Shown one piece after another: positions 7,390-32,000 of a stretch of 32,000 nt of DNA. Each line of letters opens with the position of its first letter. Within the stretch, counting starts at the first letter, position 1. The translations under genes and the position numbers were made by a program. The stretch comes from Rhodobacter capsulatus SB 1003 (GTDB lineage: Bacteria > Pseudomonadota > Alphaproteobacteria > Rhodobacterales > Rhodobacteraceae): positions 1,380,001-1,412,000 of the forward strand of contig NC_014034.1 of assembly GCF_000021865.1 (NCBI RefSeq), in the 5' to 3' direction. The notes below the pieces were generated by a model, which made no database searches, had not been told where the DNA came from, and saw nothing but the letters and a program-made list of their open reading frames with translations.

Positions 7390-7447
7390 CGGGGCAACCC
7401 CGCCGGGGCCGCGCCCTGGGGCGCCGGAACGGACGGAGGGAGGGGCG

Positions 7448-9833: not shown

Positions 9834-10532
9834 ATGGCTTATGGAATTCGTTTGCACGTGCGGGGGCGCCATGCGCTGTTTACCCGGCCGGAATTGAAGG
9901 TGGAGCGGGTCAGCTATGACGTGATGACCCCCTCGGCCGCGCGCGGTATCCTTGAGGCGATCCACTGGAAGCCCGCCATCAGTTGGGTGATCGATCGCAT
10001 CCATGTGCTCGAACCGATCCGCTTTCAGTCGATCCGCCGCAACGAGGTCGGTCACAAGGCGCCGACTGGTTCGATCAAGCAGGCGATGAACCGGGGCGAT
10101 CTGGCGGGGCTGCAAATTCTGGTCGATGAGGACCGCCAGCAACGCGCCTCGACCGTGCTCGTCGCCCCCGCCTATGTGATCGAGGCGCATTTCACCCTGA
10201 CCGCAAAGGCCGGGGCCGAGGACAGCGAGGGCAAGCATCTCGACATCTTCAACCGCCGCGCCGCGCGCGGGCAGTGTTTTCATCAGCCCTGTCTTGGCAC
10301 CCGCGAATTCGCCGCCGATTTCGCGCTTCTCGCCCCCGATGCGGCCTTGCCCGCGCGCAATCCGCTGGCGGAAACGGCGGATCTGGGCTTTGGCACGCCG
10401 CGCGATCTGGGGCTGATGCTGTGGGACATCGACCATGCTGCGCCCGGCCGCCCCTCGATGTTCTTTCGCGCCCGGCTGGTCGAGGGCGTGATGGAGGTGC
10501 CGCGCCCCGGATCGCCGGAGGTGCTGCGATGA
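9834..10532 (+). CDS. cas5: Cas5c (Cas5d), the pre-crRNA processing subunit of type I-C
   Basis: GAGGTG RBS lies 4 nt upstream. The N-terminus MAYGIRLHVRGRHALFTRPELKVERVSYDVMTPSAARGILEAIHWKP is the typical Cas5 subtype I-C signature. The stop overlaps the next start (ATGA). Confidence 0.92.
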   Translation: MAYGIRLHVRGRHALFTRPELKVERVSYDVMTPSAARGILEAIHWKPAISWVIDRIHVLEPIRFQSIRRNEVGHKAPTGSIKQAMNRGDLAGLQILVDEDRQQRASTVLVAPAYVIEAHFTLTAKAGAEDSEGKHLDIFNRRAARGQCFHQPCLGTREFAADFALLAPDAALPARNPLAETADLGFGTPRDLGLMLWDIDHAAPGRPSMFFRARLVEGVMEVPRPGSPEVLR

Positions 10533-13215: not shown

Positions 13216-13865
13216 TGCCCGCGCCGCCCGCCGAGGAGGAGACGATCCCTCTCTCGGCGCTGCAGCATGCGGTTTACTGTTTGCGGCAGGCGGCGCTGAT
13301 CCATCTCGAACGGCTCTGGGACGAGAATATCTTTACCGCGCAAGGGGATGTGCTGCACGCGGTGGCCGACAAGGGCGGCAGTCGAAAGGGCAGGGGAGGG
13401 CGGCGGGTGCTCTCGTTGCCCTTGGGTTCCGTGCGGCTCAACCTGTCGGGCACAGCCGATCTGGTCGAATTCCAGCCGCAGCCCGACGGCAGCGAACGCC
13501 CCTTTCCGGTCGAATACAAGCGCGGCAAACCAAAGCTGCACCGCGCCGACGAGGCGCAGCTTTGCGCGCAGGCGCTGTGCCTTGAGGAGATGACCGGCCA
13601 GCCGGTGCCCGAAGGCGCGCTTTACTATGCCCAGACGAAACGGCGCGTCACCGTGCCGATCGATGCCGAGCTTCGCGCCCTCACCATGGCCGCCGTGGCC
13701 GATCTGGCAGAGGTCTTTGCCCGCCGCACCACCCCGCCCCCCACGCCGCACCGCAGCCGTTGCCGGGCCTGCTCGCTCATCGACCTCTGCCGCCCCGAGA
13801 CCGTCGCCCGCCCGGTGAAACGCTGGCGCGACCAGACCCTGGCCCGGCTCCTGGAGGCGCGATGA
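13215..13865 (+). CDS. cas4: Cas4 RecB-like exonuclease with an Fe-S cysteine cluster
   Basis: An N-terminal Cys (LQHAVYCLRQAAL), the core VEYKRGKPK, and a C-terminal C..C.....C (RCRACSLIDLC) are present. It sits between cas7 and cas1. TGATG and ATGA overlaps mark its ends. Confidence 0.9.
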   Translation: MPAPPAEEETIPLSALQHAVYCLRQAALIHLERLWDENIFTAQGDVLHAVADKGGSRKGRGGRRVLSLPLGSVRLNLSGTADLVEFQPQPDGSERPFPVEYKRGKPKLHRADEAQLCAQALCLEEMTGQPVPEGALYYAQTKRRVTVPIDAELRALTMAAVADLAEVFARRTTPPPTPHRSRCRACSLIDLCRPETVARPVKRWRDQTLARLLEAR

Positions 13866-14896
13866 AGAAGCTTCTGAACACCGTCTATGTCACCACCGAG
13901 GGCGCGGCGCTGCGGCTGGAGGGCGAGACCCTCGTGGCCGAGATCGAGGGTGCCGACAAGACTCGGGTGCCGCTGCATATGCTGGCCTCGGTCGTGGTGT
14001 TCGGCCCGGTCTTGCTGACCCCCGCGCTGATCGCCGTCTGCGCCGAGCGCGGCATCACCCTTGCCCTGATGGGCCGCAATGGCCGGTTTCAGGCCCGCGT
14101 CGAAGGCCCGGTCTCGGGCAATGTGCTGTTGCGCCGTGAACAATACCGCCGCGCCGACAGCCCCGAAGAGATCGTCCGGTCCTTCGTTCTGGGCAAGGTG
14201 TCGAACCAGCGCGCGGTGATCCGCCGGGCCTTGCGCGACTACGGCGATGACATGGCGCCCCCGGCAAGGGCAGCGCTGGAGACCGCCGCCGACCGCATGG
14301 CGCAGATCCTGCGCCGGGTGCAGCTTGCCGATGCCTCGGTCGAGGCGATGCGCGGCTCCGAGGGCGAGGCCGCCAATCTTTATTTCGCCGTCTTCGATCA
14401 TCTGATCCGCGCGCCCGATGCCGAATTGCGCTGGACGCTCCGTTCCCGCCGCCCGCCGCTCGATCCGATGAACGCGCTGGTGTCGTTCCTTTACACGCTT
14501 CTGACGCATGACTGCCGCTCCGCCTGCGAGGCGGTGGGGCTGGACCCGGCGGTGGGCTTCCTGCACCGCGACCGCCCCGGCCGGCCCAGCCTTGCCCTTG
14601 ATCTGATGGAGGAATTGCGCGCGCCCCTGGCCGACCGGCTGGCTTTGTCGCTGGTCAATCGTCGTCAGTTGCGGGCGGCGGATTTCCGGCAGATGGAGGG
14701 GGGCGCGGTGCTTTTGACCGATGACGCGCGGCGCAGCGTTCTGACCGCCTGGCAGGACCGCAAGCGCGAGGAGCGGCTGCATCCCTTCTTGCAGGAAAAG
14801 GCGCCTTTCGGGCTGGTGCCTTTCCTGCAGGCGCAGATGCTGGCCCGCCACCTGCGCGGTGACATCGACGCCTATCCGCCCTGGTTCTGGAGTTGA
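13862..14896 (+). CDS. cas1: Cas1 integrase, subtype I-C
   Basis: Starts [24 protein letters not shown]. It contains the conserved Cas1 blocks [30 protein letters not shown] and [20 protein letters not shown]. Confidence 0.93.
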
Positions 14897-15364: not shown

Positions 15365-18068
15365 GTCGCTCCCCCCGCGGGGGCGTGGATCGAAACTGCA
15401 CCCGCTGGCCCTGCCGGTGATCGGTGATCAGCGGTCGCTCCCCCCGCGGGGGCGTGGATCGAAACATCGCCGCTTTGGCGGTCGACAGGCTGGTAACGTG
15501 TCGCTCCCCCCGCGGGGGCGTGGATCGAAACATCTCGGTGCCGTCGCTCGTCCAGCCGGCCTGCTCGTCGCTCCCCCCGCGGGGGCGTGGATCGAAACCA
15601 CCTTGCGGATTGTCACTTTCGCGGGGCGAAGCGTCGCTCCCCCCGCGGGGGCGTGGATCGAAACATCTGCATGTAGTCGGCGGGCAGTTCGAGCCGCAGT
15701 CGCTCCCCCCGCGGGGGCGTGGATCGAAACTGGTATGGATCTGGCGCAAACGGAAAGTCTGTCGTCGCTCCCCCCGCGGGGGCGTGGATCGAAACCTGCG
15801 GCGTGAGTTGCCAGTGATAGACGCCGTGGACGTCGCTCCCCCCGCGGGGGCGTGGATCGAAACTGCGCCGCCTATCGCATCCGGTCGAGCGCCGCGCAGT
15901 CGCTCCCCCCGCGGGGGCGTGGATCGAAACGATGCGTTCATGGCCTACGTCGGGCAGTGGACTGGTCGCTCCCCCCGCGGGGGCGTGGATCGAAACTCGC
16001 CCTCGATCCGCGCTTGCCTCACGCCTGCCGCGTCGCTCCCCCCGCGGGGGCGTGGATCGAAACAGGCGCATCTGATGTATATGCCCGGTGAGACGGCTGT
16101 CGCTCCCCCCGCGGGGGCGTGGATCGAAACTTTTCGTCATCTGGCAGGCTCGCGCCGCCACGCTGCGTCGCTCCCCCCGCGGGGGCGTGGATCGAAACCC
16201 GGCGAAAAACGGCCATGCCTCCGGGTGTCTGGCTGTCGCTCCCCCCGCGGGGGCGTGGATCGAAACAGCAGGTCAGCCGCGGCCCCGGTGAACTTCTGTT
16301 CGTCGCTCCCCCCGCGGGGGCGTGGATCGAAACAAGCAGTGGGGTGAGTGGGCTGACCAGACAAACGCTGTCGCTCCCCCCGCGGGGGCGTGGATCGAAA
16401 CCGCGCCCTGCGGGTGATGGCGACGGGCACCACGGCGGTCGCTCCCCCCGCGGGGGCGTGGATCGAAACGGACCTGAAATTCCGCGGGAAACGCGGCGGC
16501 GAGCACGTCGCTCCCCCCGCGGGGGCGTGGATCGAAACTGCTTTCGTGGGACTGGCCAGCCGCCCGCGCCAAGTCGCTCCCCCCGCGGGGGCGTGGATCG
16601 AAACGATTTCGTCGCTTACGACGCCTATCTGATTTCGGGTCGCTCCCCCCGCGGGGGCGTGGATCGAAACCATGCGGCGATAACTCGCTCTTGCGATCCG
16701 TCATCGTCGCTCCCCCCGCGGGGGCGTGGATCGAAACCCTGTCCCTCATATGCTGCCACGATGCCCTTGAGTCGCTCCCCCCGCGGGGGCGTGGATCGAA
16801 ACCGTGTGGATGATCATGCAGCGCGGACGGCTTGGGTCGCTCCCCCCGCGGGGGCGTGGATCGAAACCGGTCCAGAGATAGACCGCGCGGACCTCCTCAG
16901 ACGTCGCTCCCCCCGCGGGGGCGTGGATCGAAACAGCCTGCGCGGCCGCATCGGCTTCCGCCTGCGTGGTCGCTCCCCCCGCGGGGGCGTGGATCGAAAC
17001 ATCAGCTCGTCGTTGGTCAGCCGGACGATGTCCGTCGCTCCCCCCGCGGGGGCGTGGATCGAAACTGCCGTCTTGAGTGATGGGGCGCGAGCACATGTCG
17101 TCGCTCCCCCCGCGGGGGCGTGGATCGAAACGTCCAGCTCGCGCCACATGTCTTCGACCGTGCGCCGTCGCTCCCCCCGCGGGGGCGTGGATCGAAACGT
17201 GTCTGCCACGACGCCCTGCACCAGATCCGCGCCGTCGCTCCCCCCGCGGGGGCGTGGATCGAAACACCGCGCACGCGCGAACGGCGTCAGCCCCGCGAAC
17301 GTCGCTCCCCCCGCGGGAGCGTGGATCGAAACGGCTTTACAGCCTTCGCGCCCCACGCCAGACGGACGTCGCTCCCCCCGCGGGGGCGTGGATCGAAACT
17401 CTTCAATGGATATGGCAAAACCGTCCGCGACATGTCGCTCCCCCCGCGGGGGCGTGGATCGAAACACCGTCATCACCACGCAACCGCCCTGCACCACCGG
17501 TCGCTCCCCCCGCGGGGGCGTGGATCGAAACAACCCGATCATGGCCCGCCTCAGCGCCGCGCTGACGTCGCTCCCCCCGCGGGGGCGTGGATCGAAACAT
17601 CCGCGGATCGGCGTGACCCGCCCCGCCCATCGGTCGCTCCCCCCGCGGGGGCGTGGATCGAAACTACAGAGTTCCGGTCTTGTTCTGTTCCGGTAACAGG
17701 TCGCTCCCCCCGCGGGCGCGTGGATCGAAACTTGTCTGACGCGCTCATCAGCACGTCAAGATTCAGTCGCTCCCCCCGCGGGGGCGTGGATCGAAACGGT
17801 GTCCAGCGTCACATGCAGCGGCGTCGCATCGCCATGTCGCTCCCCCCGCGGGGGCGTGGATCGAAACCCGGCACCTCAGCCCCGCCCGCTGTCTCACCAA
17901 CAGTCGCTCCCCCCGCGGGGGCGTGGATCGAAACTCTATGGGAGGCTAGGGAGGCTACGCACCTTCAAAAGTCGCTCCCCCCGCGGGGGCGTGGATCGAA
18001 ACCGCCGCGCAAAAAGCCCGCCAAGAAGCGGAGCAAGTCGCTCCCCCCGCGGGGGCGTGGATCGTAAG
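15365..18068 (+). CRISPR. Type I-C CRISPR array, 41 repeats and 40 spacers
   Basis: The 32-nt repeat is GTCGCTCCCCCCGCGGGGGCGTGGATCGAAAC, with the I-C-type 3' end GTGGATCGAAAC. I located all 41 copies by hand. Spacers are 33-38 nt, all different, and the lengths sum exactly to the array length. Variants are repeat 30 (17301, G18A), repeat 36 (17700, G18C) and the last repeat (18037), which ends ...GGATCGTAAG. Confidence 0.97.
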
Positions 18069-18736: not shown

Positions 18737-20478
18737 TCAGGCCGCCTTGCCTTGCGACGGGGCCTCGTTGGCGGCCTTGAAATGCCAGGGCATCAGCTGG
18801 CTGTAATCGGTCAGCTCACGCCCCTTTTCGATCTGATCGATGACCCAGCTCAGATAGCGGAAGGGGTCGACGCCGTTCAGCCGCGCGGTCTCGATCAAGG
18901 AATAGAAGATGGCCCAGTTCTTCGCAGCCATGAGGTTGCCGGCAAAGAGCGAGTTCTTTTTCGAAAGGGCAATCCCGCGCATGCAGCGTTCGACGGGGTT
19001 GTTGTCTATCGCGAGCCGGCCGTCATAAACGTAACGGGTCAGGTCCTCCCAGCCGCTCAGGAAGTAATTGACGGCAGTCTTCAGGCTGCCCTTGGCCAGA
19101 TCGGGTTGGACCCGCAGCAGGTCCGCACGGATCTTTTCGAGGACCGGCAGCGCCTCGGCGAGGCGCAGCGCCTGGCGCTCCTCGGGCGGGCAGCCATAGA
19201 CCCGTTCCTCGACCTCATAGACGGCCTTGAGCCCCTTGATCACGCGCTTCGCAAGGGTGCTCGGCGCAGCCTTTTGGCTGTCGGTGAACTTGCGGCGCGC
19301 ATGCGCCATGCAGCGCGCGATCTCCACCCCGTCGTTCTGCCCCGGCACCCGGCGGATCCGGTTGTAGGCCTTCCAGCCGTCGATCTGGAGGGTGTCGATC
19401 AGCGCGCCCTCGAGCATGCGCTCCGCGACATGCCCGCCACGCGAGGCGTCGTGCTCGCAATAAACCGCCGGTTCGGCCTCTTTGTTCCAGCCACGTTCAT
19501 CGCGGCACAGCCCCCAGAGCCAGGTCGTCTCGCAGCCCCCTTTGGCCTGGGTGCGCAACGGCGTCTCGTCCATGTGCGCCGCATGCCCGCTGGTCACGTG
19601 CCGCCAGAGTTCGTCGCACACCGGCTCCAGAAAGCCCGCGATGTGGGTCGCGTTGCGGCCAAGCGTCTGGCGCGCCACGTTGAACCCGGCGTTGTCCAGG
19701 CGACGCCGCTGGCGGTAATGCGTCGAGTGTTCGTAAAATTTCTGGCAGACCGCCTCCACCACGGTCCTCGGCGTGATCGTGCGCCTCCGGCCGATGAAGC
19801 CCTCGGCATGTGCGGACACGGGCTTGTGCTCCTTGCAGGCGGCGCTGCGGTTGCAGGCGCAGCGGAAGTAGATGTGCTTTTCCCACACGTAATGCTCCGG
19901 GATGACCCTGAGCTGAGTATCCAGTGGCCGATCTCCTTCAGCTCGCCCCCGCAGGGGCAGTGCGTCTGCTCCGGATAATGCTTGATCTCGATGGTCTTGA
20001 TGTCCTTGGGCATTTTCCGCTTCTGCTTGCCCTTGCGCGCTTTCGGCGTCTCTTCCTCCTCGTCGATGTCGTCGTCGGGCAGATCGAGGGTGCCGTCCTC
20101 GATGTCCTGGTAATTGTTGTCCGATCCGCCGACGAAGATCTTGTGGCGCAGGAGCTTCGCCTGCTCCTTCTCCTGGCGCAGGCTCCGCTTGAGGGTGGCG
20201 ATCTGACGCCGGGCGATGCTCTCGCGGGACACCACATCTTCGAATTCCAGATGTACGTCGATCAGGCACTCCTCGATGCCCTGCTTGATCTCGGCGCAGT
20301 CGCCGGGCAGCGCGGCCAGCAAATCGGTGATTTCCGTGATGATCTCCCCCATCGGGCTGAGCTCGCCCTCGACCGTTTCCTCGGTCTGGACGGTCTCTTG
20401 CGTCCCCAAGGGGGCGGTGTCCTCGGGCGGCAGGATCTCGTCCTTCAGGGGTTCGTCAGTCTGGTCTTTGTCAGCCAT
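18737..20478 (-). pseudogene. IS66-family transposase (TnpC-like) split by a frameshift near 19921-19945
   Basis: The N-terminal part (from ATG 20478, with GAGGA RBS) has an acidic/coiled-coil region and a zinc-finger start: HCPCGGELKEIG. The rest continues in another frame: DRPLDTQLRVIPEHYVWEKHIYFRCAC...HMDETPL...LQIDGWKAYN...CMAHARRKF...IDNNPVERCMRGIALSKKNSLFAG...ARLNGVDPFRYL...LMPW, which are the hallmark IS66 TnpC blocks. There is no slippery heptamer at the junction. Confidence 0.85.
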
Positions 20479-21438: not shown

Positions 21439-21714
21439 CCGACCGACCGGCGACGGATCGACAAGTGCCACCCATCTTCCCCTAAAAATGCGCTCCGGAA
21501 AAATCGGCATCATTGGCCATTTCGGTCTTGACGTTATTTCATTGGCGATTCGTGAAGGTGTCTTTCGGCGCCTTTTGGCCTTCGAGGCGCAGGCTGCTTG
21601 ATCGCGGCCGAAATCTCGCCCCGGCGCGCTGGTTTTTCGGCAGGATTTGATTCGCGTCAGGCCCCGGCCGTGCGCATCCTGAGCCGAGGTCTGACATCAC
21701 GCGGGGAACGAAAA

Positions 21715-22236
21715 ATGTGCGGGCGGTTCGTCGATCCCAATCTGCGCAACACCGAAGTGGACATGTCGCAGATCAAGCTCGATCCGTTCGGGGCCCGGTT
21801 CAATGTCAAGCCGACTGAAACAGTGGTGATCCTCGCAAAATCGCCGCTGATCGCGATGGAGGCCAGATGGGGCCTCATCCCGTCATGGTTCGGGGGCGAC
21901 AGCCCGAAGCGTGGAAAGCCGCGACGTTCAACGCCCGCATCGAGGATGCGCGCGAAAAGCCCGCCTTTCGGCAGGTGTGGCGGCATGGCCGATGCCTTGT
22001 GCCGGTCGGCGATTTTTACGAGTGGAGCGGTCCCAAGGCCGCCAGCCGCATTTCTTCTCCCCCGCCGGAAACGAGGCGAACCTGTATCTGGCGGGACTGG
22101 CGAGCCGCTGGCGCGATCTTCTGACCTGCACCATCCTGACATCCGATCCGTCCAAAGTCGATGCGTGCGCTTCACACATTGGAAGGTTCTCCGCGAAGCC
22201 CCACCATGCGGCGGCACATCCCGACCGCGAAGATGA
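21715..22236 (+). pseudogene. SRAP (SOS-response-associated peptidase, YedK/DUF159-like) gene with at least two frameshifts and a degenerate 3' end
   Basis: It starts with the invariant MCGRF. Frame 1 reads ..FNVKPTETVVIL..ARWGLIPSWF. Frame 2 reads WKAATFNARIEDAREKPAFRQVWRHGRCLVPVGDFYEWSGPK. Frame 3 reads QPHFFSPAGNEANLYLAGLASRW..LLTCTILTSDP. Together these reconstitute the SRAP fold order. The expected H.RMP block is not recognisable beyond ~22150. Confidence 0.8.
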
Positions 22237-22317
22237 CACTGCTCCCGGCAAAAGATGTCACCCACCAAGCAGAAAGGTCTTGCAGTATGACATGCGATTA
22301 GATGACAGCCTCGGCCG

Positions 22318-22917
22318 CTACCTGCCGGCCAGAATGTCCTTAGCGATAGCCATGAACTTTTCGGCTCGCTTACGCAAGTAATCGGCTTCGATTTGGTCGA
22401 TTCGTGTTGAAGTTACCAACGTCCCTGGCTGAATATTGAGGATGCCTACTCCAGCTGAATCTGGCTTTGCCAAGCGCAGCACAGTCAGCAATCCTCGTTC
22501 TTTCTCCCGAGGAAGTTGTTCCTTTCCGAAATGTAAGAAGATAATTCTTCTCTGGTTGTTTTCTTCTGTGCGCAAATACCAAGCTGTTGTGATGCGCAGT
22601 CCAGAAATCTCTGCTTCAACCGGACTGCGGCCCTGCCAAATAAGTGCATAGTCCTCCTTCAAATCTAGATAATTTTTACACAAGATTTTGTAACCAGCAG
22701 ATTTATTTGCAGAAACACCAGAATGAAGTGTCAGAAATTCACTGGTGGAAACCTTCCCATCCTCAAAAGAAGCTAATGCTTCTCGAAACTGTTTGTAGCG
22801 ATCCTTGGCAGGGTCATATGGTACATCTAGGTCGTCGATTATGCTTGCGGCTTTGGTCTTATCTTTTCTCTTATCGCCGTAGGCAAAGTCGATAAATTGA
22901 TTGACGCTAATCTTCAT
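22318..22917 (-). CDS. Hypothetical protein (199 aa) with no family recognised; second gene of the orphan cassette
   Basis: It is a clean ORF in a locally low-GC stretch. ATG at 22917 is preceded by AGGAAAG. The amino-acid composition is ordinary (K/E/D/L-rich), unlike the Arg/Pro/Ala shadow ORFs elsewhere. No competing ORF is present. Confidence 0.6.
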   Translation of the reverse strand: MKISVNQFIDFAYGDKRKDKTKAASIIDDLDVPYDPAKDRYKQFREALASFEDGKVSTSEFLTLHSGVSANKSAGYKILCKNYLDLKEDYALIWQGRSPVEAEISGLRITTAWYLRTEENNQRRIIFLHFGKEQLPREKERGLLTVLRLAKPDSAGVGILNIQPGTLVTSTRIDQIEADYLRKRAEKFMAIAKDILAGR

Positions 22918-22968
22918 TTATCTTTCCTATTTGGCTCTATCGGAAACCTTATGTTCCGGGCGTGGCCG

Positions 22969-22998
22969 TATAAAGCGCTATTTGGCCTAGGTTGTCTA
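22969..22998 (-). promoter_or_regulatory. Candidate sigma70-type promoter for the 199-aa gene
   Basis: On the minus strand, TAGACA (22998-22993), an 18-nt spacer, then TTTATA (22974-22969), about 50 nt upstream of the ATG at 22917. This is a pattern match only. Confidence 0.3.
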
Positions 22999-23064
22999 CA
23001 AGCATAGGCAGGCTCGTCCGCATCGTTTGTGCGACGACGGGGTTTAGTGGCCCTACTCGCCGTT

Positions 23065-23943
23065 CTAGCCCGCCGAGGCTTCATCAGGGAATGGACGTGT
23101 GAAGGCTCCCAAATGCTTCAGCACGTCCTTGGCGTTGCTCGCCACGATCCGAAGCTCCCGATCCTTGGTCAAGACCTCATTGAAGTAGGTCGAGGTCGCG
23201 GCGAGCTGGTTATCAACGACGTCATTCAACCGGTGGTCCAAACTCTTCACCTGCCGACCGAGCTCTACCCACCTTGTGAACGCAATTACCACGCAGAGCG
23301 CATAGCGATAGGCGAACATTCCGTGCGCTTCGCTCCGCTTCAGTGGCGCGGTGCGTCCGGGCTCTTGGTTGGTTTTCACGAACTCAACTGTCACCTCGTC
23401 CACAAGGTTGAATATCTTCTCCTGAAGGGTGCTGGTTATTCCTTGGCCAGTTCGGATTTGCGTCAGTTCTTCGACGCGAAACTCCTTAAGCAGGCTCTGA
23501 AGCGAAATTTCCAGCGTTCGCACCTGGTCGCTCAGCTGCCGCATGTATTGCGAAGCCTCGCCCTCTCGCGCTTTCATTCGTTCGACGAAGCTGGGGATCG
23601 CTTCCTCTGATCTATAGTCGCGGGTGAGTTGGCGAATGTCAGCGCTGCGGTCCGGGTCGATAAGTTGCTGCAGGTCGGCCTCGCTGCACACTTTGGCATC
23701 AAGCCAGAGATGAGTCGGCTTCAATGCGAAGATCTGATCTGGGAAGTCAGCCATGATCTTCAGGCTGCTACGCGCTGTCCCGAGCGCGTTCTTCTTGAAC
23801 ATCTCTGTTAGGGTCAGGTCGGCGAGGACCAAGCGGTGGTGGGTGTGTGCGGACAGGTATACCCGCAGTCGCTCATCCCTCAAATAGTTGCCATCGGCCA
23901 TCACCAAGAGATGCGGAATCACGATGCGATGCCTACCCTTCAC
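23065..23943 (-). CDS. Hypothetical protein (292 aa), possibly a PIN-like nuclease interrupted by a long helical insertion
   Basis: The ORF has ordinary composition, with a GTG start at 23943 and GGAGGG 12 nt upstream. The residue pattern is HLLVMADGNYL (first Asp), LVLADLTLTEMF (Glu), and C-terminal NDVVDNQLAATSTYFNEVLTKDREL (resembling the D..A.tA....lvT.D end of PIN domains). About 140 aa of heptad-like helical sequence lies in between. The domain call is an inference. Confidence 0.55.
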   Translation of the reverse strand: MKGRHRIVIPHLLVMADGNYLRDERLRVYLSAHTHHRLVLADLTLTEMFKKNALGTARSSLKIMADFPDQIFALKPTHLWLDAKVCSEADLQQLIDPDRSADIRQLTRDYRSEEAIPSFVERMKAREGEASQYMRQLSDQVRTLEISLQSLLKEFRVEELTQIRTGQGITSTLQEKIFNLVDEVTVEFVKTNQEPGRTAPLKRSEAHGMFAYRYALCVVIAFTRWVELGRQVKSLDHRLNDVVDNQLAATSTYFNEVLTKDRELRIVASNAKDVLKHLGAFTRPFPDEASAG

Positions 23944-24309
23944 AATTCATCAGGCCCTCCCCCACCATCTATGGTGTATTGAGAGGGACTGTTAGACGGC
24001 ATGCGTTCATTTTGTGACGGTTTCATCCGCGAATTGGACAGCCGACATCCCCAAGATTGCTGCGAGGCGCGCGAGCGTCCCCTTTCGGTAGTGCTGCGAG
24101 GCAGCAAATCGGAAAGGCGTGGGGCCGATATGGGCCGAGCACGTTGGTCATCCGTCGCCTTCGCAAGGGGCGGAGAGCGGTCGTTCGCTGCTCGCCCATT
24201 CAATGTCTGGTTTGGACGCCAACTCATCGGCTTTCTCATGAAGCAGCTCGATTGCTTTGCGGACGAGCAGTTGCTGGAACTGGGTGTGGCGATTTGCTAG
24301 GCTGCAACC

Positions 24310-25497
24310 ATGGCGACGCAAACAATCATCACTGACCCGCAACGCATGACCGAAGAGGGGACCTCGTTCGGTACGCCCAGTGGCATCGAAAGGGAGCTGC
24401 CTAGTGAGCTCGGCAACGACCTGCAGATCGCCGAGCCGTTCAATCCGGACGATATCGACGTCACGACGCGCTCGATGACCATTGATCTCCTCCTATCGAG
24501 GATGCGCAGCAAGGCGATCGATCTCGAGCCAGATTTCCAGCGCCGCCGCGGGATCTGGACTGATCGCCAGCAGAGCCGGTTGATCGAGTCGCTGCTCCTC
24601 CGCATTCCGCTGCCCACGCTCTATGCCGCCGAGGACGAAGAAGAGAATTGGGCGATTGTCGATGGCATCCAGCGCTTGACGACGATTACGCGGTTCATTG
24701 ATCCAGAAGCGATCGGCGAGACCCCACTCATGCTAACCGGGCTGGAGTATCTCGGCGAGTCCTTCAACGAAAAGCTGTTCGACGACCTTCCCGCACGACT
24801 GAAGCGCCGTCTGCGCGAGACTGAACTCGTCGTTCACGTCATCCGTCACGGCACCCCGCAGGAAGTAAAGTTCAACATCTTCGCGCGGATCAACACTGGA
24901 GGAATGCCACTCTCGGCGCAGGAACTGCGTCATGCCCTGATACCCGGCAAGGCGAGGAATTATCTCAGCCGGCTGGCTGGGCTAGAGGCATTCAAGCAGG
25001 CTACCGCCAATAGCATTCGCGACGAGCGAATGGCTGATCGAGAGATGGTCTTGCGGTTTCTCGCCTTCAGCATGACCGACCCCAAAGAATTCCGAGCCTA
25101 TGATTTTGACCGCTTCCTCGGCGACGCGATGCGCGAGATCAATCGTCTCAACAATAGAGATCTGGAGCGGCTTGAGGACGGCTTCACTCGGGCGATGGAA
25201 AGCGCGCTGGAAATCTTCGGTCAGGATGCTTTTCGCAAACGCTATCGCGAGACCGATGCGCGCTTCCCGATCAACAAAGCGCTGTTCGAGACCATTGCCG
25301 TGTCGCTCTCCAACCTCTCGGACAGCGAGCGAGCGCGCTGCATCCTTCGCCACGACGAGGTCCGCCGCCGGATGATGGAGGCGATGCACGACCGCGAATT
25401 CGATGCCGCCATCTCGCAGGGTACGGGTGATATCAGGAAGGTGCGCAAGAGGTTCGAGACGGTATTAAAGATCTTCAAGGATATCTCCGATGTTTGA
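24310..25497 (+). CDS. DUF262 (ParB/GmrSD N-terminal-like) domain protein, 395 aa, without a DUF1524/HNH nuclease domain
   Basis: IDLEPDFQRRRGIWTDRQQSRLIESLLLRIPLPTLYAAEDEEENWAIVDGIQRLTTITRFI matches the DUF262 signature (FQR..vW....LIdSil.g.P.P...........viDGqQRLtt). The stop overlaps the next start by 8 nt (ATGTTTGA). Confidence 0.8.
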   Translation: MATQTIITDPQRMTEEGTSFGTPSGIERELPSELGNDLQIAEPFNPDDIDVTTRSMTIDLLLSRMRSKAIDLEPDFQRRRGIWTDRQQSRLIESLLLRIPLPTLYAAEDEEENWAIVDGIQRLTTITRFIDPEAIGETPLMLTGLEYLGESFNEKLFDDLPARLKRRLRETELVVHVIRHGTPQEVKFNIFARINTGGMPLSAQELRHALIPGKARNYLSRLAGLEAFKQATANSIRDERMADREMVLRFLAFSMTDPKEFRAYDFDRFLGDAMREINRLNNRDLERLEDGFTRAMESALEIFGQDAFRKRYRETDARFPINKALFETIAVSLSNLSDSERARCILRHDEVRRRMMEAMHDREFDAAISQGTGDIRKVRKRFETVLKIFKDISDV

Positions 25498-26608
25498 TGC
25501 GCTCACTTTGCATAATTTTAAGGCGTTCCGGGATGTCCATATCCCTCTGAAACCGCTTACCTTGCTGTCTGGTTTAAACGGGTCAGGGAAGAGCACCACG
25601 TTGCAAGCATTGGCCTTGCTCCGCCAGTCATGGGATGCTGGCTTCCTGTCGAGGCAGGGCTTTCTCTTGAATGGAGATCTGGTCGAGCTCGGTACCGGCG
25701 TGGATGTGCTCAACGATCAGCATGAGGACGAAGACATCGGCATCACGCTCTTTGATCGCGAAGAGCGGGCCTTTGCATATCGGGTCGCCTATGAGCCGCG
25801 GGGCGATTTGCTGCATTTTTCTGCCGACCCCAATTTCAGCTTTTACTCGGATCTAGAGCATCAACGCGGCCTGTTCGGCCATTGGTTTCAGTATCTGCGC
25901 GCCGATCGTGCCGGGCCCGAGGTGAGCTTCCCCAAGGCCTATCACCTCGTCAACGAGCGCCGATTTCTTGGCAGCCGCGGTCAGTATACTGCTCATTTCC
26001 TGAGCCTATTCGGCGACGAAGAGGTCAATCCGGTACTTCGACATCCCGACGAGGCAGCTCCAGGCTTGCTCTCGCAGGTCAACGCCTGGTTTCAGGAGTT
26101 CAGCCCCGGTGTCGGGCTCGCTGTCGAGGACATCCCTCGGACGGATGCCGTGCGCCTAGATTATTTCTATGGCGGGAGTGCCGGAATCAGTGGGTCCAAT
26201 CCCTATCGCTCGACCAATGTCGGCTTCGGGCTGACGTACGTCCTCCCCATCCTCGTTGCCTGCCTGGCATCACCGCCTGACAGCTGGCTCCTGATCGAGA
26301 ACCCCGAAGCGCATCTCCATCCACAAGGCCAGGCGGCGATGGGGCAATTGATGGCGCGATCCGCCGCGACTGGTACACGGATCGTTGTCGAAAGTCATAG
26401 CGATCATTTCCTTAACGGCATCCGCCTCGCGGTGAAGAACGGCGAAATTCCCGCTGGGGACGTTGGTCTCAATTTCTTCCGCCGGCCGTCCGGAAGCAGC
26501 CAACCCGAGCGCATCCATCCGGTCGTCACCCCGGAGGGTAGGCTCTCAGAATGGCCCGATGGCTTCTTCGATCAGTGGGATAAGTCGCTGGATCAGCTGC
26601 TGAGTTGA
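25490..26608 (+). CDS. ABC-type AAA_15/AAA_21 ATPase with a DUF3696-like C-terminus (372 aa)
   Basis: Walker A is LSGLNGSGKSTT. Walker B/D-loop is WLLIENPEAHLHPQGQ. The H-loop is IVVESHSDHFLNG. The C-terminal stretch GRLSEWPDGFFDQW is as I remember for DUF3696. The next gene starts 2 nt after the stop. Confidence 0.8.
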   Translation: MFDALTLHNFKAFRDVHIPLKPLTLLSGLNGSGKSTTLQALALLRQSWDAGFLSRQGFLLNGDLVELGTGVDVLNDQHEDEDIGITLFDREERAFAYRVAYEPRGDLLHFSADPNFSFYSDLEHQRGLFGHWFQYLRADRAGPEVSFPKAYHLVNERRFLGSRGQYTAHFLSLFGDEEVNPVLRHPDEAAPGLLSQVNAWFQEFSPGVGLAVEDIPRTDAVRLDYFYGGSAGISGSNPYRSTNVGFGLTYVLPILVACLASPPDSWLLIENPEAHLHPQGQAAMGQLMARSAATGTRIVVESHSDHFLNGIRLAVKNGEIPAGDVGLNFFRRPSGSSQPERIHPVVTPEGRLSEWPDGFFDQWDKSLDQLLS

Positions 26609-26609
26609 G

Positions 26610-27524
26610 ATGACCTTCATCGCTTTCTTGAACGAGCTGTCCTTTCCTTCGGGCGCCGTAGATGCGGAAGCCGCAGAAGCGGCCGTCGTGGGACTGGCCA
26701 AGACGCTGCAGTCTTTGCGCCAGATACAGTCGAGCGCAGCGCTCCACTCCTCCGTTCCATTGGCGTCGATCCCGCTCGGCGATGATCGTTGGCTTGGCAC
26801 GGTTATGGCAAAGGGACGCAGTCGCGATGAATGGCGGTTCTTGCGCAGCTTCGAAAACCGCGCGCCGTTCCGTGTCAACCTGGGTGAAGCATTCGGCCTG
26901 GAAGCGGAATATCGCTACGGTGACGTGCTCGCCGAGGGTCTCGGGCTGGGCCATATTGTAGGCACGCTCGGCGTAAGCTTTGCGAACGAGCCTTGGCTGG
27001 CGCCGACCGTACCGCTCCGTCGCATCTCGTTCGATGAGCACGGCGGGTTCGAAGAGCGGGTCGTCCACGTCCATCACGCTGCCACGCCCGATCATGTCAA
27101 AGGGCATGATGAATGGCTGCGGCGGATACCCAGCGAGCAGGTGCGCGATGGAGACGAACTATGGGCGCGGCGCGCCGAGATTTTCCCGCATTTGCTCTTC
27201 CTCCCGCGCACTGAGGCTCATTTGCGTGCATTCAAGGCGGGAGAGCCTCGCCTGTCATCGGCACGGCAAGCATTGATGGACCTTGAGATCGCGGCGGCTC
27301 ACTGGAATACAAAGGACGCCGCGATGCCGACCTTCCTGACCAAGACCACGCCGGAAAAGGAGCAGCGGAGCAAGCTATTCTACTTTATTGATCTCTCGGG
27401 CGTCGAACGCTGCTTCGACTGGCATTCCCGCTACACGCCCGGTGCCGGCAGGGTTCACTTCTGGTGTGACCGTTCGTCGGGCCGACTGACGATCGCCCAT
27501 GTCGGCGAAAAAGTACCGAATTGA
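26610..27524 (+). CDS. Hypothetical protein (304 aa), third gene of the DUF262/ATPase operon
   Basis: It is tightly coupled to the ATPase gene and has ordinary composition. No motif was recognised, except that the extreme C-terminus (WHSRYTPGAGRVHFWCDRSSGRLTIAHVGEKV) weakly recalls the terminal strands of RelE/HigB/Gp49-type toxins. Confidence 0.6.
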   Translation: MTFIAFLNELSFPSGAVDAEAAEAAVVGLAKTLQSLRQIQSSAALHSSVPLASIPLGDDRWLGTVMAKGRSRDEWRFLRSFENRAPFRVNLGEAFGLEAEYRYGDVLAEGLGLGHIVGTLGVSFANEPWLAPTVPLRRISFDEHGGFEERVVHVHHAATPDHVKGHDEWLRRIPSEQVRDGDELWARRAEIFPHLLFLPRTEAHLRAFKAGEPRLSSARQALMDLEIAAAHWNTKDAAMPTFLTKTTPEKEQRSKLFYFIDLSGVERCFDWHSRYTPGAGRVHFWCDRSSGRLTIAHVGEKVPN

Positions 27525-27817: not shown

Positions 27818-28726
27818 TCAGCCGTGCTTGATTAAGGTGCCGTCGTTCAACTCGCGCAGGGCTTGGCGCAGCTCCTCTTGCGTGTTCATCACGATCGGCC
27901 CGTGCCAGGCGACGGGTTCCTGGATCGGGCGGCCGGTCATCAGAAGGAACCGGATCCCCTCGTCGCCCGCCTGCACCGTGATCGCGTCGCCAGCCCCGAA
28001 CCGCACCAGCGTGCGATTGCCGGTCCTGTCGCGCAGGGTCATCTCCTGCCCGCGATATTCCTTCTCGACCTTGATGCCGACGGGGTCGCTGGCGTCCCGA
28101 AACGTCCCCGAGCCCGCAAAGACATAGGCAAGCGCGTTGGCCCGGGTATCGACCGACAGCGCCTTGCGCCGCCCCGGCGGCACCGAGACATCAAGCAGCA
28201 TCGGATTGGCAGCGATCCCGTCGACCGGGCCTGTCTTGCCCCAGAACGTGCCGATGATGACCTTGACGGTGGTGCCATCGTCGTCTCCCTCGACGGGGAT
28301 GTCGCCCGCGCCAACGTCCTGATAACGCGGCGCGGTCATCTTCAGCGCGGCGGGCAGGTTCGCCCAAAGCTGAAAGCCGTGCATCTGCCCCTGCGCGTTG
28401 CCGAAGGGCATTTCCTGATGCACGATGCCCGAGCCCGCCGTCATCCATTGCACGCCGCCCGCGCCAAGCAGCCCCCGGTTGCCCAGCGAATCCGCGTGTT
28501 CCACCTGGCCTTCAAGAACATAAGTAATGGTCTCAATCCCGCGGTGCGGATGCCAGGGAAACCCCTTGGCATAAAGCCGCGGATCGTCGTTGCGGAAATC
28601 GTCCATCATCAGGAAGGGGTCGGTGAGCGCGGGATCGCCAAAGCCGAACACGCGGTGCAGATGCACCCCCGCGCCCTCGATGGCGGGCTGGGCTTTGCTG
28701 GTGGCAAGGACGGGTCTGAAGGTCAT
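27818..28726 (-). CDS. Pirin-family bicupin protein (302 aa)
   Basis: GFPWHPHRGIETITYVLEGQVEHADSLGN..GGVQWMTAGSGIVHQEMP is the pirin N-terminal cupin signature. The ATG is preceded by GGGAG. Host-like high GC suggests a core gene. Confidence 0.9.
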   Translation of the reverse strand: MTFRPVLATSKAQPAIEGAGVHLHRVFGFGDPALTDPFLMMDDFRNDDPRLYAKGFPWHPHRGIETITYVLEGQVEHADSLGNRGLLGAGGVQWMTAGSGIVHQEMPFGNAQGQMHGFQLWANLPAALKMTAPRYQDVGAGDIPVEGDDDGTTVKVIIGTFWGKTGPVDGIAANPMLLDVSVPPGRRKALSVDTRANALAYVFAGSGTFRDASDPVGIKVEKEYRGQEMTLRDRTGNRTLVRFGAGDAITVQAGDEGIRFLLMTGRPIQEPVAWHGPIVMNTQEELRQALRELNDGTLIKHG

Positions 28727-28926
28727 CGGCGGCTCCCATGTTTTTCATGCACAATCTGGGCTGGTGCGAAAAAATTTGAATTGGCGAAGATCCGGCATTT
28801 CCTGTGCGCAGGCGCGCAGAAGGGCCTCTCTGGTTTCGGCAAGGCCCACCCACCCCGCCCTCGAAAACCTACAACAAGACGACCCAGCGGGGGTTTATAG
28901 GCAGTGTCCCTTATGGCGGTGTAGGA

Positions 28927-28966
28927 GGCCGCGCGCGGAGCCTTTGGCGTAGCGCAGCGCGCGGCC
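28927..28966. other. Inverted repeat with a 10-bp GC stem (GGCCGCGCGC / GCGCGCGGCC) and a 20-nt loop
   Basis: It can be read directly, ~165 nt downstream of the tail-fibre stop on the minus strand. There is no U-tract, so a terminator role is uncertain. Confidence 0.25.
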
Positions 28967-29130
28967 GTGGGTGACGCTGGTGGTCACCGTCAATCTTCGG
29001 AGAAGGTTTTGTTTCCAAGACCTGAAACCGACAACGGAGACGACGATGACCGATGATCGCCATTTGGGTTCTGTCAATAGCCTGGTTGCAATGGATGCGG
29101 TAAACACCGCCAATTCGAGCAGGCGCTTGC

Positions 29131-32000
29131 TCAAGGCGAGACATTCGGCATCAGGTATTCACGCACGCTAATACTTGTTGATAACTGGGAGCTGCCTTCA
29201 TGGTTGGAATAACCGGAGAAATTATAAATGAAAGGGGTGCTTGCGGGTGACTGTTCATCTATGAATAGGAACGGTCCGGAAATTTTTGTACGCGACGGGA
29301 AACTAAAGTCGTTCACTTGATCTTCGTTGTTAATCGCGATCACCACGGCGCCAAAAGAAGAAGACTTGACCTCGATGACGTCTCCCTCTTGGACGATGTA
29401 ACATTCTTCTTTTTCAAAAGAATCATCACCCACGAAAGAGCTATTTCTTGTAAGTGTAAAGCAGACTACTCGTTTCATATCGACTGGGACAGCCGCGATC
29501 GTAATTTTGTCATGTCTCGCTGTTCCCGTTGATGCAAGACTGTCCGTTGCCCGTACCAGTATATTGAAATAGGGCAACATAAGCGAGCGCGTGATATTTA
29601 ATGCCAGACTGTCCGCATATTTCTTGCTGACAACCTGATTGTCCGCAGTCGGGTCCGTCGCGACCGGAACGGTCGGGAACGCAGCGAAGCTCTTCACGCC
29701 CGAAATGGCCTGGTTCCCGGTCATGGACACCTTGGTGTCCGCATAGGCCTTGTTGGCCACCGCGGTCGAGGTGGTGCCCATCGTCGGGACATAGGTTGCC
29801 GCGGGCAGGTTTACCGTTCCGGTTCCCGTCAGTGTGCCGGTGAAGGTTTTCGTCCCTGCGATGCTCTGAGCGCCGCTGTCGCGAATAACCGTATCGTCAA
29901 CGGCAAAGTCATTCGTCGCGGCATCCAGGGTCAGGCCATCCCCCGCGCCATAATCCGCAACGGAGGCCCAGGATGCCCAGGTTCCCGCCGATGTCCGGGT
30001 CCGGTAGAAGGTGCCCTTCGCGCCGAGCGTTGAATAACGCTGCACGAGCACGTTGCCGTTGTTCACCACCTCAAGGATGCCGGGCTGACCGGAAGGCCTG
30101 TTCAGCGCGATTGCCGCCGCGGTGGCGATCCCGGTCGAAACCTTGTAAAAATTGGTATCAACGACCGTGTTGAAGTCATCGGTCGTGGTCAGCGCGGCGC
30201 CGGCCCCGAATTTCGTGTCCGCATAGGCCTTGCTCGCCACCTGATTGTCGAGCGTGGGCGTGGCCGCGGGCAGAAGCGGAAGGTCGTTGAAAGTCTTCAC
30301 CCCGGATAGCGTCTGCGCCCCGCTGGTCCGCACCACCGTATTGTCGGCCGAGAAGACGTTTCCGGAGAGGGCCAGACCCGATCCTGCCGCATAGCTGCTC
30401 GCCGCAACAATTTTGCTGTCGACATACCCTTTCGAGGCGACCTCGGCGGCGAGCGTCGGTGTGGAGGTCGGGATCTGCGGGATCGTCGAAAAAGTTTTCA
30501 GCCCGGCAACAGCCTGCGCCCCGGAGGTGTTCACCGTCGGCAGCGTGATCGCAGCGGAACCGTCAAAAGCGACGCCGTTGATATTCGCGGCTGCCGCGAG
30601 TTTCGTCGCGGTGGCGGCGTTGCCGGTGATCGAGCCCGCGATCGGTGACATGAAGGTCTTTACGCCCGCCAGCGTCTGCGCGCCTGCGGTCCGCACCACG
30701 GTGCCATCGACCGCGAAGTCGGTCCCGGTGAGCGACAGTCCGTCACCCGCCGTGTAAGTCGCCCCAACCTTGCTGTCGACATAGGCCTTCGAGGCCACCT
30801 GGCCCGCCGCGGTCGGCGCCGTGGTCGGAATGACCGGGATGGCGGAGAAGGTTTTCGTGCCGCCGATGGTCTCGGCCGTGGTCAGATCGACAAAGCCTCC
30901 GTCGACATAGCCCTTGTTCACCAGAGCCGTCGATGTCGTGCCCATCGTCGGCACATAGCTTGTCGTCGACAGGTTCACCGTGCCGGTCGCGGTCAGAGCG
31001 CCGCTGAAGGTCTTCGTCCCCGCAATGCTTTGCGTGCCCGTGGTCCTCACGACCGTCGCATCGACGGCAAAGGTCTGTGTCGTGACATCGAGATCGATCC
31101 CGTCGCCCGCGTTGTACGAGGCAAATGGTTTCCAGGCGAACCAGACACCGGACGAGTTGCGCGTCCGGTAGAAGGTCCCGGTCGAGTTGATTGTCGAATA
31201 GCGCTGCATGATCGAGCCGCCGTTGTTCAGCACCTCAAGCATGCCCGGTTGGCCGCTCGGCCGGTTCAGGGCCAGCGCCGCCGCGGTCGAAATTCCGGTT
31301 GTCGCCTTGTGATAACCGCTCATCAGCACGTCATCGAAGTCATCGGTCGTCGAAAGGACCGAGCCGATGCCGAATTTCGTGTCCGCATAGGCCTTGTTGA
31401 CCGCCTGCAGATCGCTCGTCGGCGCTGTGACCGGCAATATCGGGATGTCGCTGAAGGTCTTCACCCCGGCCACCGCCTGGGCGCCGGTGGTGTTTACCGT
31501 CGGCAGGGTGATCCCGGCCGTGCCGTCGAAGGCCACGCCGTTGATGGTGCGCGCGGAGGCGAGTTTCGTCGCGGTCGCCGCATTGCCGGTAATCGAGCCC
31601 GCGATCGGCGCGGAGAAGGTCTTCACGCCCGCCAGTGTCTGATCGCCCGAGGTGCGCACCACCGTGCCATCAGCCGCGAAGGTGGTGCCGGTGAGCGACA
31701 GGCCAGAGCCCGCGGTATAGGTCGTTCCCACCGCGCCCGCGACCTGGGCGTCGACATAGGCCTTCGACGCCACCTGTCCCGCCACGGTCGGTGCCGTGGT
31801 CGGAATGACCGGGATGTCGCTGAAGGTCTTCACCCCGGCCACCGCTTGGGCACCGGTGGTGTTCACCGTCGGCAGGGTGATGTTGGCCCCGCCATCAAAG
31901 GCGACGCCGTTGATGGTGCGCGCCGTCTGCAGCTCGGAGGCCGTCGCCGCGTTGCCGGTGATCGAGCCTGCGATCGGGGACGAGAAGGTTTTCACCCCGG
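29131..32000 (-). CDS. Phage/GTA-type tail-fibre protein, C-terminal 955+ aa; the 5' end lies right of the window
   Basis: The listed start is a GTG inside a GVKTF repeat and the frame stays open to nt 32000. It has repeated fibre motifs: G(S)ITGNAATATKL..ARTINGVAFDG.A.ITLPTVNT.GAQAVAGVKTFS three times, SKAYVD/KAYADTK, and DGTVVRT.G.QTLAGVKTF. It also has two paralogous ~170-aa globular modules. Confidence 0.85.
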   Translation of the reverse strand, partial: GVKTFSSPIAGSITGNAATASELQTARTINGVAFDGGANITLPTVNTTGAQAVAGVKTFSDIPVIPTTAPTVAGQVASKAYVDAQVAGAVGTTYTAGSGLSLTGTTFAADGTVVRTSGDQTLAGVKTFSAPIAGSITGNAATATKLASARTINGVAFDGTAGITLPTVNTTGAQAVAGVKTFSDIPILPVTAPTSDLQAVNKAYADTKFGIGSVLSTTDDFDDVLMSGYHKATTGISTAAALALNRPSGQPGMLEVLNNGGSIMQRYSTINSTGTFYRTRNSSGVWFAWKPFASYNAGDGIDLDVTTQTFAVDATVVRTTGTQSIAGTKTFSGALTATGTVNLSTTSYVPTMGTTSTALVNKGYVDGGFVDLTTAETIGGTKTFSAIPVIPTTAPTAAGQVASKAYVDSKVGATYTAGDGLSLTGTDFAVDGTVVRTAGAQTLAGVKTFMSPIAGSITGNAATATKLAAAANINGVAFDGSAAITLPTVNTSGAQAVAGLKTFSTIPQIPTSTPTLAAEVASKGYVDSKIVAASSYAAGSGLALSGNVFSADNTVVRTSGAQTLSGVKTFNDLPLLPAATPTLDNQVASKAYADTKFGAGAALTTTDDFNTVVDTNFYKVSTGIATAAAIALNRPSGQPGILEVVNNGNVLVQRYSTLGAKGTFYRTRTSAGTWASWASVADYGAGDGLTLDAATNDFAVDDTVIRDSGAQSIAGTKTFTGTLTGTGTVNLPAATYVPTMGTTSTAVANKAYADTKVSMTGNQAISGVKSFAAFPTVPVATDPTADNQVVSKKYADSLALNITRSLMLPYFNILVRATDSLASTGTARHDKITIAAVPVDMKRVVCFTLTRNSSFVGDDSFEKEECYIVQEGDVIEVKSSSFGAVVIAINNEDQVNDFSFPSRTKISGPFLFIDEQSPASTPFIYNFSGYSNHEGSSQLSTSISVREYLMPNVSP

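Follow-up and report, generated by a model that had tools for sequence, protein, structure and literature searches.

Two neighbouring low-GC genes in a Rhodobacter capsulatus defence island as probable independent modules: a putative split-PIN nuclease and a mobile-element cargo protein with a predicted Cas4/RecB-type fold

When two genes of low GC content stand side by side within a defence island, do they form one immune module, or have two unrelated genes come to rest next to each other? We consider this question for a pair of minus-strand genes, here called A and B, of Rhodobacter capsulatus SB 1003 (NCBI RefSeq assembly GCF_000021865.1, contig NC_014034.1). They lie in a stretch of 32,000 nucleotides (nt), positions 1,380,001 to 1,412,000 of the forward strand, which we call the window and in whose own numbering all positions are given. 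A sequence-only reading of this DNA had presented the pair as a two-gene cassette and as a candidate for an undescribed defence or abortive-infection module. Comparison with relatives in other genomes suggests instead, with near certainty, that A and B are independent single-gene modules that lie side by side in the island and whose adjacency is accidental. That this independence holds together with two further proposals, namely that A is a split PIN protein with a probable role in defence and that B is a cargo gene of mobile elements, is the explanation we prefer, and we give it a probability of about 0.6. The locus is organised as follows.

22318 to 22917, minus strand: open reading frame (ORF) of gene B, 199 amino acids (aa).
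22918 to 22984, minus strand: upstream region that travels with B, kept in many B loci and ending in an AGGAAAG ribosome-binding site.
22985 to 23048, no strand: junction of the A and B modules, the stretch common to no foreign locus in blastn comparisons with all fetched loci.
23065 to 23943, minus strand: ORF of gene A, 292 aa from the first GTG; probable start at GTG 23922, giving 285 aa.

The low GC content of the two minus-strand genes had been noticed before and is confirmed: A has 56.7% and B 44.8%, while the host flanks have about 64 to 70%; at third codon positions the values are 71% and 45%. The spacer between them is 147 nt long, as had been reported. The length of 292 aa first given to A is correct from its first GTG, yet the start is likely the GTG at 23922, since MIPHLxVMADG is the N-terminus of close relatives and the NCBI annotation (WP_131618293.1) uses this start. 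A is 100% identical to this R. capsulatus protein (also ADE85064.1), and B is 99% identical to WP_023917357.1. Searches of Pfam, NCBIfam, PADLOC and PHROGs with the two proteins of the window returned no match for either, and to this extent the earlier statement that neither can be assigned was justified; it was nevertheless too strong, given that A can be described as a split PIN protein and B as having a Cas4/RecB-type fold.

The evidence for independence comes mainly from synteny. In tblastn searches, A and B were found together only in 10 R. capsulatus contigs, all of which carry the identical island and therefore count as one observation. Elsewhere, none of 37 foreign loci of the A family, which include distant relatives from plasmids and metagenomes, contains B, and none of 29 foreign B loci contains A. 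Close relatives of A occur in six different foreign contexts, and B is present in none of them. When the region was compared by blastn with all fetched loci, the A-type loci matched only 23049-24139 and the B-type loci only 22315-22984, so that the junction of two modules falls inside the spacer. Furthermore, the families differ in size, with nine clusters in the close clade of A and about 122 in the family of B. The sequence-only reading had itself proposed to look for conservation of the pair in other genomes and had taken its absence as speaking against a cassette; this is the outcome obtained, and the cassette has to be given up. The false operon arose from adjacency within a defence island and was quickly removed by the comparison of synteny, which may serve as a warning for similar cases.

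What expression signals the two genes possess is less clear-cut. The earlier proposal that B has its own promoter-like and ribosome-binding signals stands in part: the AGGAAAG site precedes B, and about 65 nt upstream of the gene are conserved among B loci, as would be expected of a gene that carries its expression signals along when it moves; a scan of the minus strand of the region with the sigma-70 consensus, on the other hand, revealed no promoter. The same region contained no recognisable intrinsic terminator, and the predicted RNA fold of the spacer is not unusually structured.

What kind of protein, then, is A? It belongs to a sizeable, unnamed and unannotated family, for which an exhaustive HMMER search found at least 479 representatives at 50% clustering (E<=1e-3) and 200 at E<=1e-10; among the 150 best matches listed, nearly all are 260 to 300 aa long and align end to end. 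The close relatives are 74 to 81% identical to A and make up the nine clusters mentioned above. In an alignment of 92 members (19 to 79% identity), D17, N19, E47, K50, Q70, R164, R213, N240, D244, T252, F254 and D261 are invariant or nearly so, and conservation of the acids D17, E47, D244 and D261 is complete or at least 90%. These four correspond to the three motifs from which the sequence-only reading had deduced the acidic-residue order of a PIN nuclease, and that deduction was sound. The AlphaFold (AF2) model of A, obtained as had been suggested, is of high confidence (predicted local distance difference test score, pLDDT, 94.7; predicted template modelling score, pTM, 0.91). Its N-terminal half consists of a strand at 13-16, helices, a strand at 37-40, further helices and a strand at 71-74, and it is followed by an all-helical block at about 75-234, a helix at 235-251, a strand at 256-258 and a helix at 262-277. 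Thus, the model has the three-layer alpha/beta/alpha fold and the order of strands and helices of a PIN domain, and the family carries the four acids D-E-D-D by which such domains are defined (as quoted in PMC12065111). That A has PIN topology with an insertion, and that its four acids sit at PIN catalytic positions, is a well-supported reading of this model, from which we infer that the protein would be a nuclease; its formal membership in the PIN family is unproven. The insertion, which is about 160 aa long, follows the third strand and precedes the next core helix, had been described as coiled-coil-like and about 140 aa long, and it is real. It is probably a functional domain rather than a linker, because it has conserved residues of its own (R164, F210, R213 and Y214). 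The parts of A, predicted from the model, are the following.

23719 to 23907, minus strand: N-terminal half of the PIN fold, residues 13-75, with strand 1 followed by D17 and N19, strand 2 followed by E47 and K50, and Q70 followed by strand 3; assigned from the secondary structure of the model, the conservation among 92 sequences and weak in-register matches to E42 of the toxin VapC and to D7 and E42 of the defence protein DS-3.
23242 to 23718, minus strand: all-helical insertion, residues 76-234, containing a 40-residue helix (113-152) and the four conserved residues just named.
23089 to 23241, minus strand: C-terminal half of the PIN fold, residues 235-285, with a helix carrying N240-D241-x-x-D244 followed by L-A-A, then strand 4 and T259-x-D261.

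Two known proteins are instructive for comparison. VapC-type PIN toxins such as that of Shigella (whose sequence we verified as PDB 3tnd) share with A the order and the local context of the four acids, that is, D-(S/T)-N after strand 1, a glutamate in the helix that follows strand 2, D-x-x-hAA and T-x-D. A profile of the A core with the insert deleted runs in register with Shigella VapC and pairs E47 with the catalytic E42; only 3 of 2000 shuffles score as well (P about 0.0015), and the corresponding hhalign P of 0.04 is not significant. Unlike VapC, A contains the conserved helical insertion of 160 aa, has no gene for a VapB-type antitoxin and is about twice the size. A closer parallel is offered by DS-3 (working name PIN8; WP_022645725.1), a 340-aa protein of E. 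coli that was validated by the DefensePredictor study (Science 2026; PMC13092281). There, the mutants D7A and E42A lose defence, no antitoxin is present, and the authors suggest that the protein is auto-inhibited until infection (PMC13092281). Like DS-3, A is a single protein without partner or antitoxin: across 31 non-redundant loci the neighbours of the A family vary, and no conserved partner or antitoxin is found, the one recurrent neighbour (DSR1, discussed below) being limited to one subclade. In both proteins the PIN fold is split by a long insertion, with halves at 1-75 and 276-327 in DS-3 and at 13-75 and 235-285 in A; the first aspartate and the glutamate stand at equivalent positions (D7 and E42 in DS-3, D17 and E47 in A), and both have an N-D-x-x-D segment (KNDIFD in DS-3) with T-x-D 17 to 18 residues later. 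They differ in size, DS-3 having an insert of ~200 aa and A, at 285 aa in all, one of ~160 aa; in lineage, DS-3 coming from Enterobacteria and A from Alphaproteobacteria; and in that protection against phage has been shown for DS-3, whereas A is known here from its sequence and a predicted model. By analogy, A thus appears to have the architecture of DS-3; sequence homology between the two is not established, and we do not file A as a member of the DS-3 family. In the accessible part of the supplementary tables of the DefensePredictor study, the accessions of A and B are not among the entries listed.

The genomic settings of the A family point in the same direction. One close relative lies on a conjugative element of Tabrizicola and adjoins the Hachiman genes HamA/HamB, and another adjoins CapH/CapP and CBASS. 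A third is found in Tn7-like cargo, while the remaining three adjoin the Gabija-like pair GajA/GajB, a DEAD/MZB protein together with a 2055-aa protein, and proteins of no assigned kind, respectively. A survey of the two ORFs closest to A in either direction, across the 31 non-redundant loci, gave 104 proteins. At E<=1e-10, PADLOC assigned five of them to Dsr1, three to GajB and two to a DRT-type reverse transcriptase-helicase, with further matches to HamA, HamB, a CBASS cyclase, capP and PDC candidates; Pfam added SIR2_2 (4), integrases (3) and transposases. A tblastn search of phage genomes with A gave no match, and the family has only two matches in IMG/VR and several on plasmids. DSR1 is the only recurrent neighbour of the family, and only in one metagenomic subclade: in six metagenomic loci, a relative of A stands directly upstream of a DSR1 gene or a DSR1 remnant. 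Pairwise identities range from 58 to 93% among these relatives and from 65 to 89% among the four full-length DSR1 proteins, which indicates co-divergence. Because of its fold, its conserved catalytic residues, its defence-island settings in many unrelated genomes and the existence of DS-3 with the same architecture, A is a candidate defence gene. Of the undescribed module proposed earlier, this part survives, and the two-gene part does not.

Some of these loci contain details that are worth recording in their own right. In four metagenome contigs (L055, 3954-8651; L056, 8001-12702; L064, 371-4844; and L073, 5-4267), relatives with ~40% identity to A lie directly upstream of DSR1 (SIR2) and in the same direction, and a conserved protein of ~300-358 aa is encoded ahead of the A relative in L056, L058 and L075. 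In L063, the gene downstream of the A relative (8931-10379) starts with the first 92 residues of DSR1 and continues as a TmtA-like (Tiamat) protein; its DSR1 part is 97 to 99% identical to that of three proteins of the neighbouring clade and 82% identical to that of L064. Its sequence suggests a defence gene that arose by recombination at a hotspot.

Gene B presents a different picture. Its family, about 122 clusters that are all at least 52% identical and almost all from Rhodobacterales, appears from sequence searches to be a closed alphaproteobacterial one. The AF2 model of B (pLDDT 90.8) combines an N-terminal helical region with a C-terminal alpha/beta core. With a probability of 1.0, Foldseek matched it to ACE1, Cas4 SSO0001 (4ic1), Dna2, AdnA and RecE (E 3e-5 to 9e-4; template modelling score, TM, 0.4 to 0.6), the match to ACE1 (9iac), an Argonaute-associated protein of the Cas4 family, having an E value of 3e-5 and a TM of 0.58; weaker matches, with probabilities of about 0.8 to 0.9, were to Exo5 and MGME1. 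The model therefore predicts for B the RecB-like PD-(D/E)xK fold of Cas4/RecB nucleases, and it is in the predicted fold that B resembles them. The most conserved residues of B are charged and lie in the N-terminal helices (D15, R17, D19, D35, D39, R45, E52, K72 and K87). In contrast to Cas4, B has neither the four cysteines nor the acid of the ExK motif, shows no sequence similarity to Cas4/RecB proteins in a profile search of PDB sequences, and is not linked to cas or Argonaute genes: neither cas1/cas2 nor Argonaute genes were found near B in the 29 foreign loci. The type I-C locus of the window has a Cas4 of its own (13215-13865), and hhalign of B against it found nothing.

If B is not part of a pair with A, with what does it travel? 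In some loci it stands at the end of an integrative mobilizable element with an integrase, MobC/NikA, a relaxase-like protein and TrbL, and in others on plasmids with RepA and T4CP; ParA is also among its neighbours. On the Phaeobacter plasmid pP13_h it lies between an ArdC-like gene and a MobQ relaxase gene, on the strand opposite ArdC, and elsewhere it adjoins a dCTP-deaminase defence gene (PADLOC, 9e-141) or restriction-modification (R-M) genes of the MmeI type. A tblastn search of IMG/VR with B gave no match. B is thus best described as a lone cargo gene, with a nuclease-like fold, of the mobile elements of alphaproteobacteria, mainly Rhodobacterales. Together with the short stretch upstream of it, B would move between plasmids, integrative mobilizable elements and defence islands in these bacteria, and it would most likely bind or process DNA ends as an accessory function of these elements; any role we name for B is conditional in this sense. 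A Cas4/RecB-like fold would accordingly circulate as a lone gene on the mobile elements of Rhodobacterales. We also considered whether B had arrived with a conjugative element whose remnant still adjoins it, and rejected this: no TrbL, relaxase or integrase fragment lies beside B in the window, which also contains no tRNA gene.

The surroundings of B relatives show some further features. In three loci (L029, L031 and L033), the anti-phage dCTP deaminase gene is convergent with the B relative and lies about 113 nt downstream of it, while in L020 (11887-13425) it has the same direction as the B relative and is found some 1.3 kb downstream. An R-M gene of the MmeI/Eco57I type, encoding about 710 aa, takes the position of the dCTP deaminase in L024 and L026. 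In Phaeobacter piscinae pP13_h (L076, 7068-11442), an insertion with three tyrosine recombinase genes in a row appears to separate the single-stranded-DNA-binding part of the ArdC-like antirestriction gene from its metallopeptidase part.

Several results weigh against the explanation we prefer, and they have to be set beside the evidence above. With regard to independence, read-through co-transcription of A and B may be possible judging from the window alone, as no terminator was found between them. With regard to A, neither a curated PIN model nor a solved PIN structure was matched significantly in Pfam, NCBIfam or PDB sequences: no Pfam PIN model matched any of the 92 family members or 52 insert-deleted cores, PDB sequence profile searches with the full and the spliced profiles of A gave nothing significant, and Foldseek against PDB and BFVD returned as its only PIN match, and its top PDB match, the PIN domain of SMG6, at an E value of 0.3 (probability 0.87), while the helical insert drew random helical bundles. 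The likeness to DS-3 is likewise difficult to extend to sequence. The hhalign comparison, which aligns D17 with D7 and E47 with E42, is not significant (P 0.017), the hidden Markov model of the A family scores DS-3 at 0.5 bits, the shuffle test of the spliced halves of A against DS-3 gave 10/2000, and phmmer with DS-3 against 158 members of the A family had a best E value of 0.12; a tblastn search of plasmids with DS-3 had no match. The density of defence genes near the A family is far above that near ordinary genes in a tally that has no matched control, residence in defence islands is also typical of anti-defence and mobile-element genes, and the tight link to DSR1 in one subclade means that some members may work with a partner. 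With regard to B, the catalytic D...(D/E)xK is absent: the strand on which ExK would be expected reads [H/N]129-F130-[G/R]131-K132, with only the lysine kept, and mapping of residues by secondary structure located no invariant aspartate on the preceding strand. In Cas4 proper, four cysteines bind an Fe-S cluster. The single cysteine of B, C80, is not conserved, so that B would have no such cluster. On the predicted model, catalysis by B is doubtful or non-canonical, and B may not be a nuclease.

With these points in mind, other explanations can be compared with the preferred one. It might still be argued that A and B belong together in a two-gene module for defence or abortive infection, for instance a nuclease effector with a partner or sensor, given that they are adjacent on the same strand, 147 nt apart and with no terminator detected between them, that both have predicted nuclease-type folds, and that every R. 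capsulatus contig examined has the same arrangement. These contigs, however, share the same island and amount to a single observation, and against them stand the complete absence of each gene from the foreign loci of the other (0 of 37 and 0 of 29), the homology boundaries inside the spacer, the different base compositions, and the recurrent but different neighbourhoods that each gene has; we regard a joint module as highly improbable. An autonomous role of A might also be questioned on the grounds that it is an accessory subunit of whichever defence system it adjoins, which would be Menshen in the window and DSR1 in the metagenomic subclade. The co-diverging A-DSR1 loci speak for this, as does the 366-nt control region that A shares with the divergent nsnA of the adjoining Menshen system. 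What lies beside A, however, differs between loci (Hachiman, CBASS, Gabija-like, Tn7 cargo, Menshen, DSR1 or none), and DSR1 is classified as a single-protein system. Menshen, for its part, is defined as NsnABC with no A-like fourth gene (PMC12065111), and although NsnC, like A, has a PIN-like domain, the domains of NsnC lack the catalytic residues that A keeps (PMC12065111). A general accessory role of this kind is unlikely in our view, and the narrower proposal that A is a component of Menshen was rejected, as A has many other neighbours and the Menshen literature omits it (PMC12065111).

The resemblance of the catalytic motifs of A to those of VapC suggests a further alternative, in which A would act as the toxin in an addiction or toxin-antitoxin module of the VapBC kind through which mobile elements or islands are stabilised, and the antitoxin would be either unrecognised or fused to A as the helical insert. 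Its location on plasmids, Tn7-like cargo and conjugative elements fits this, and some distant relatives have a helix-turn-helix gene or small ORFs just upstream. Still, neither the close clade nor the family as a whole has a conserved small partner ORF, the protein with its conserved insert is about twice the size of VapC, and DS-3, of the same design, defends without an antitoxin (PMC13092281), so that we also hold this for unlikely. For B, one may ask whether it serves the mobile element against the host rather than being a host defence gene, as a Cas4/RecB-like protein with degenerate catalysis that shields DNA ends or disturbs RecBCD or CRISPR adaptation and so acts in counter-defence or establishment. 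The genes adjoining it (TrbL, relaxase and MobC in integrative mobilizable elements, RepA and T4CP on plasmids), its place between the ArdC-like gene and the MobQ relaxase on pP13_h, the missing acid of the ExK motif and a GC content that stays low in GC-rich hosts are all compatible with such a function. It is harder to reconcile with the opposite orientation of B and ArdC on that plasmid, with the cargo defence genes (dCTP deaminase, MmeI-type R-M) beside which B is also found, with its place in the window, in a chromosomal defence island where no conjugation genes adjoin it, and with the fact that B has no homology link to any known anti-defence protein; we consider a counter-defence factor unlikely.

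On the preferred explanation, A would most likely be a PIN nuclease that works alone, restrains itself and putatively acts in phage defence. We infer both this role and a regulatory function of the insert largely by analogy with DS-3, and the following sequence of events can be imagined. The catalytic fold, metal-dependent and split into an N-terminal half with D17 and E47 and a C-terminal half with D244 and D261 around the conserved helical domain of ~160 residues, would be held inactive in uninfected cells, with the insert serving as a sensing or auto-inhibitory module. A cue from infection would release the enzyme, which could then cleave RNA (tRNA or rRNA, as VapC-type PINs do) or the nucleic acid of the invader, and this cleavage would stop phage growth, possibly at the cost of the cell. 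A bolder version of the whole, which is tentative and which we think less likely true than false, would make A the founding example of a large unnamed family of one-protein immune nucleases (the 50% identity clusters counted above, at least 479 in number), in which the helical domain inserted into the PIN fold is both infection sensor and active-site gate; this family would be evolutionarily separate from DS-3, so that the design either arose or diversified widely, and B would be a degenerate Cas4-like protein of conjugative and mobilizable elements of Rhodobacterales that blunts host immunity dependent on DNA ends. Should A protect against phage, a broad family that no Pfam, NCBIfam or PADLOC model covers would join the single-gene immune nucleases, and a second, sequence-distinct example of a split PIN would help to explain how infection is sensed and how an inserted domain can keep a toxic nuclease in check where no antitoxin exists. 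Since R. capsulatus SB1003 is a genetically tractable model organism that has a gene transfer agent and for which phages are known, such a test is practical.

The remainder of the window agrees with the earlier description of the surroundings. From left to right, it contains an SNF2 helicase gene, a type I-C cas operon, a CRISPR array, IS66, a broken SRAP (SOS-response-associated peptidase) gene, B, A, Menshen, a pirin gene and a gene for a BppL_N-repeat protein. The pair does lie, as had been stated, between the type I-C locus, with its cas genes and array upstream, and a fibre-type gene downstream, and the DUF262/ATPase operon noticed back-to-back with A is real and can now be named. PADLOC, which had been proposed as a check on the region, found the Menshen system complete (NsnA 3e-139, NsnB 2e-112 and NsnC 2e-92).

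24310 to 27524, plus strand: Menshen system (context, outside the feature), divergent from A, with nsnA at 24310-25497, nsnB at 25490-26608 and nsnC at 26610-27524; identified by PADLOC and by the Pfam families GmrSD_N, AAA_15/21 and DUF3696.

The type I-C CRISPR-Cas genes occupy 7337-14896 on the plus strand in the order cas3, cas5, cas8c, cas7, cas4 and cas1, and the array at 15365-17934 consists of roughly 38 units of a 32-nt repeat (GTCGCTCCCCCCGCGGGGGCGTGGATCGAAAC) that recurs about every 67 nt. Just past the array lies the IS66 element, with its transposase at 18737-20269 on the minus strand. Between IS66 and B, at 21598-22236, both strands contain only a fragment of the SRAP gene (a borderline Pfam match to residues 40-100), and pieces of 79 to 85 aa are called in other strains; this fragment appears to be a pseudogene. 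Two co-directional ORFs of 257 and 427 aa at 4448-6505 on the minus strand, between the SNF2 helicase gene and cas3, may be further uncharacterised genes of the island, the 427-aa ORF having no Pfam match. At the other end, the BppL_N-repeat protein (29131-31995, minus strand; five or more repeats; 1565 aa in complete genomes) has a resemblance to receptor-binding or fibre proteins, further phage genes not being seen around it, and a second low-GC stretch of the window (0.53-0.54, at 28500-30000) falls in the 3′ part of this very large protein's gene.

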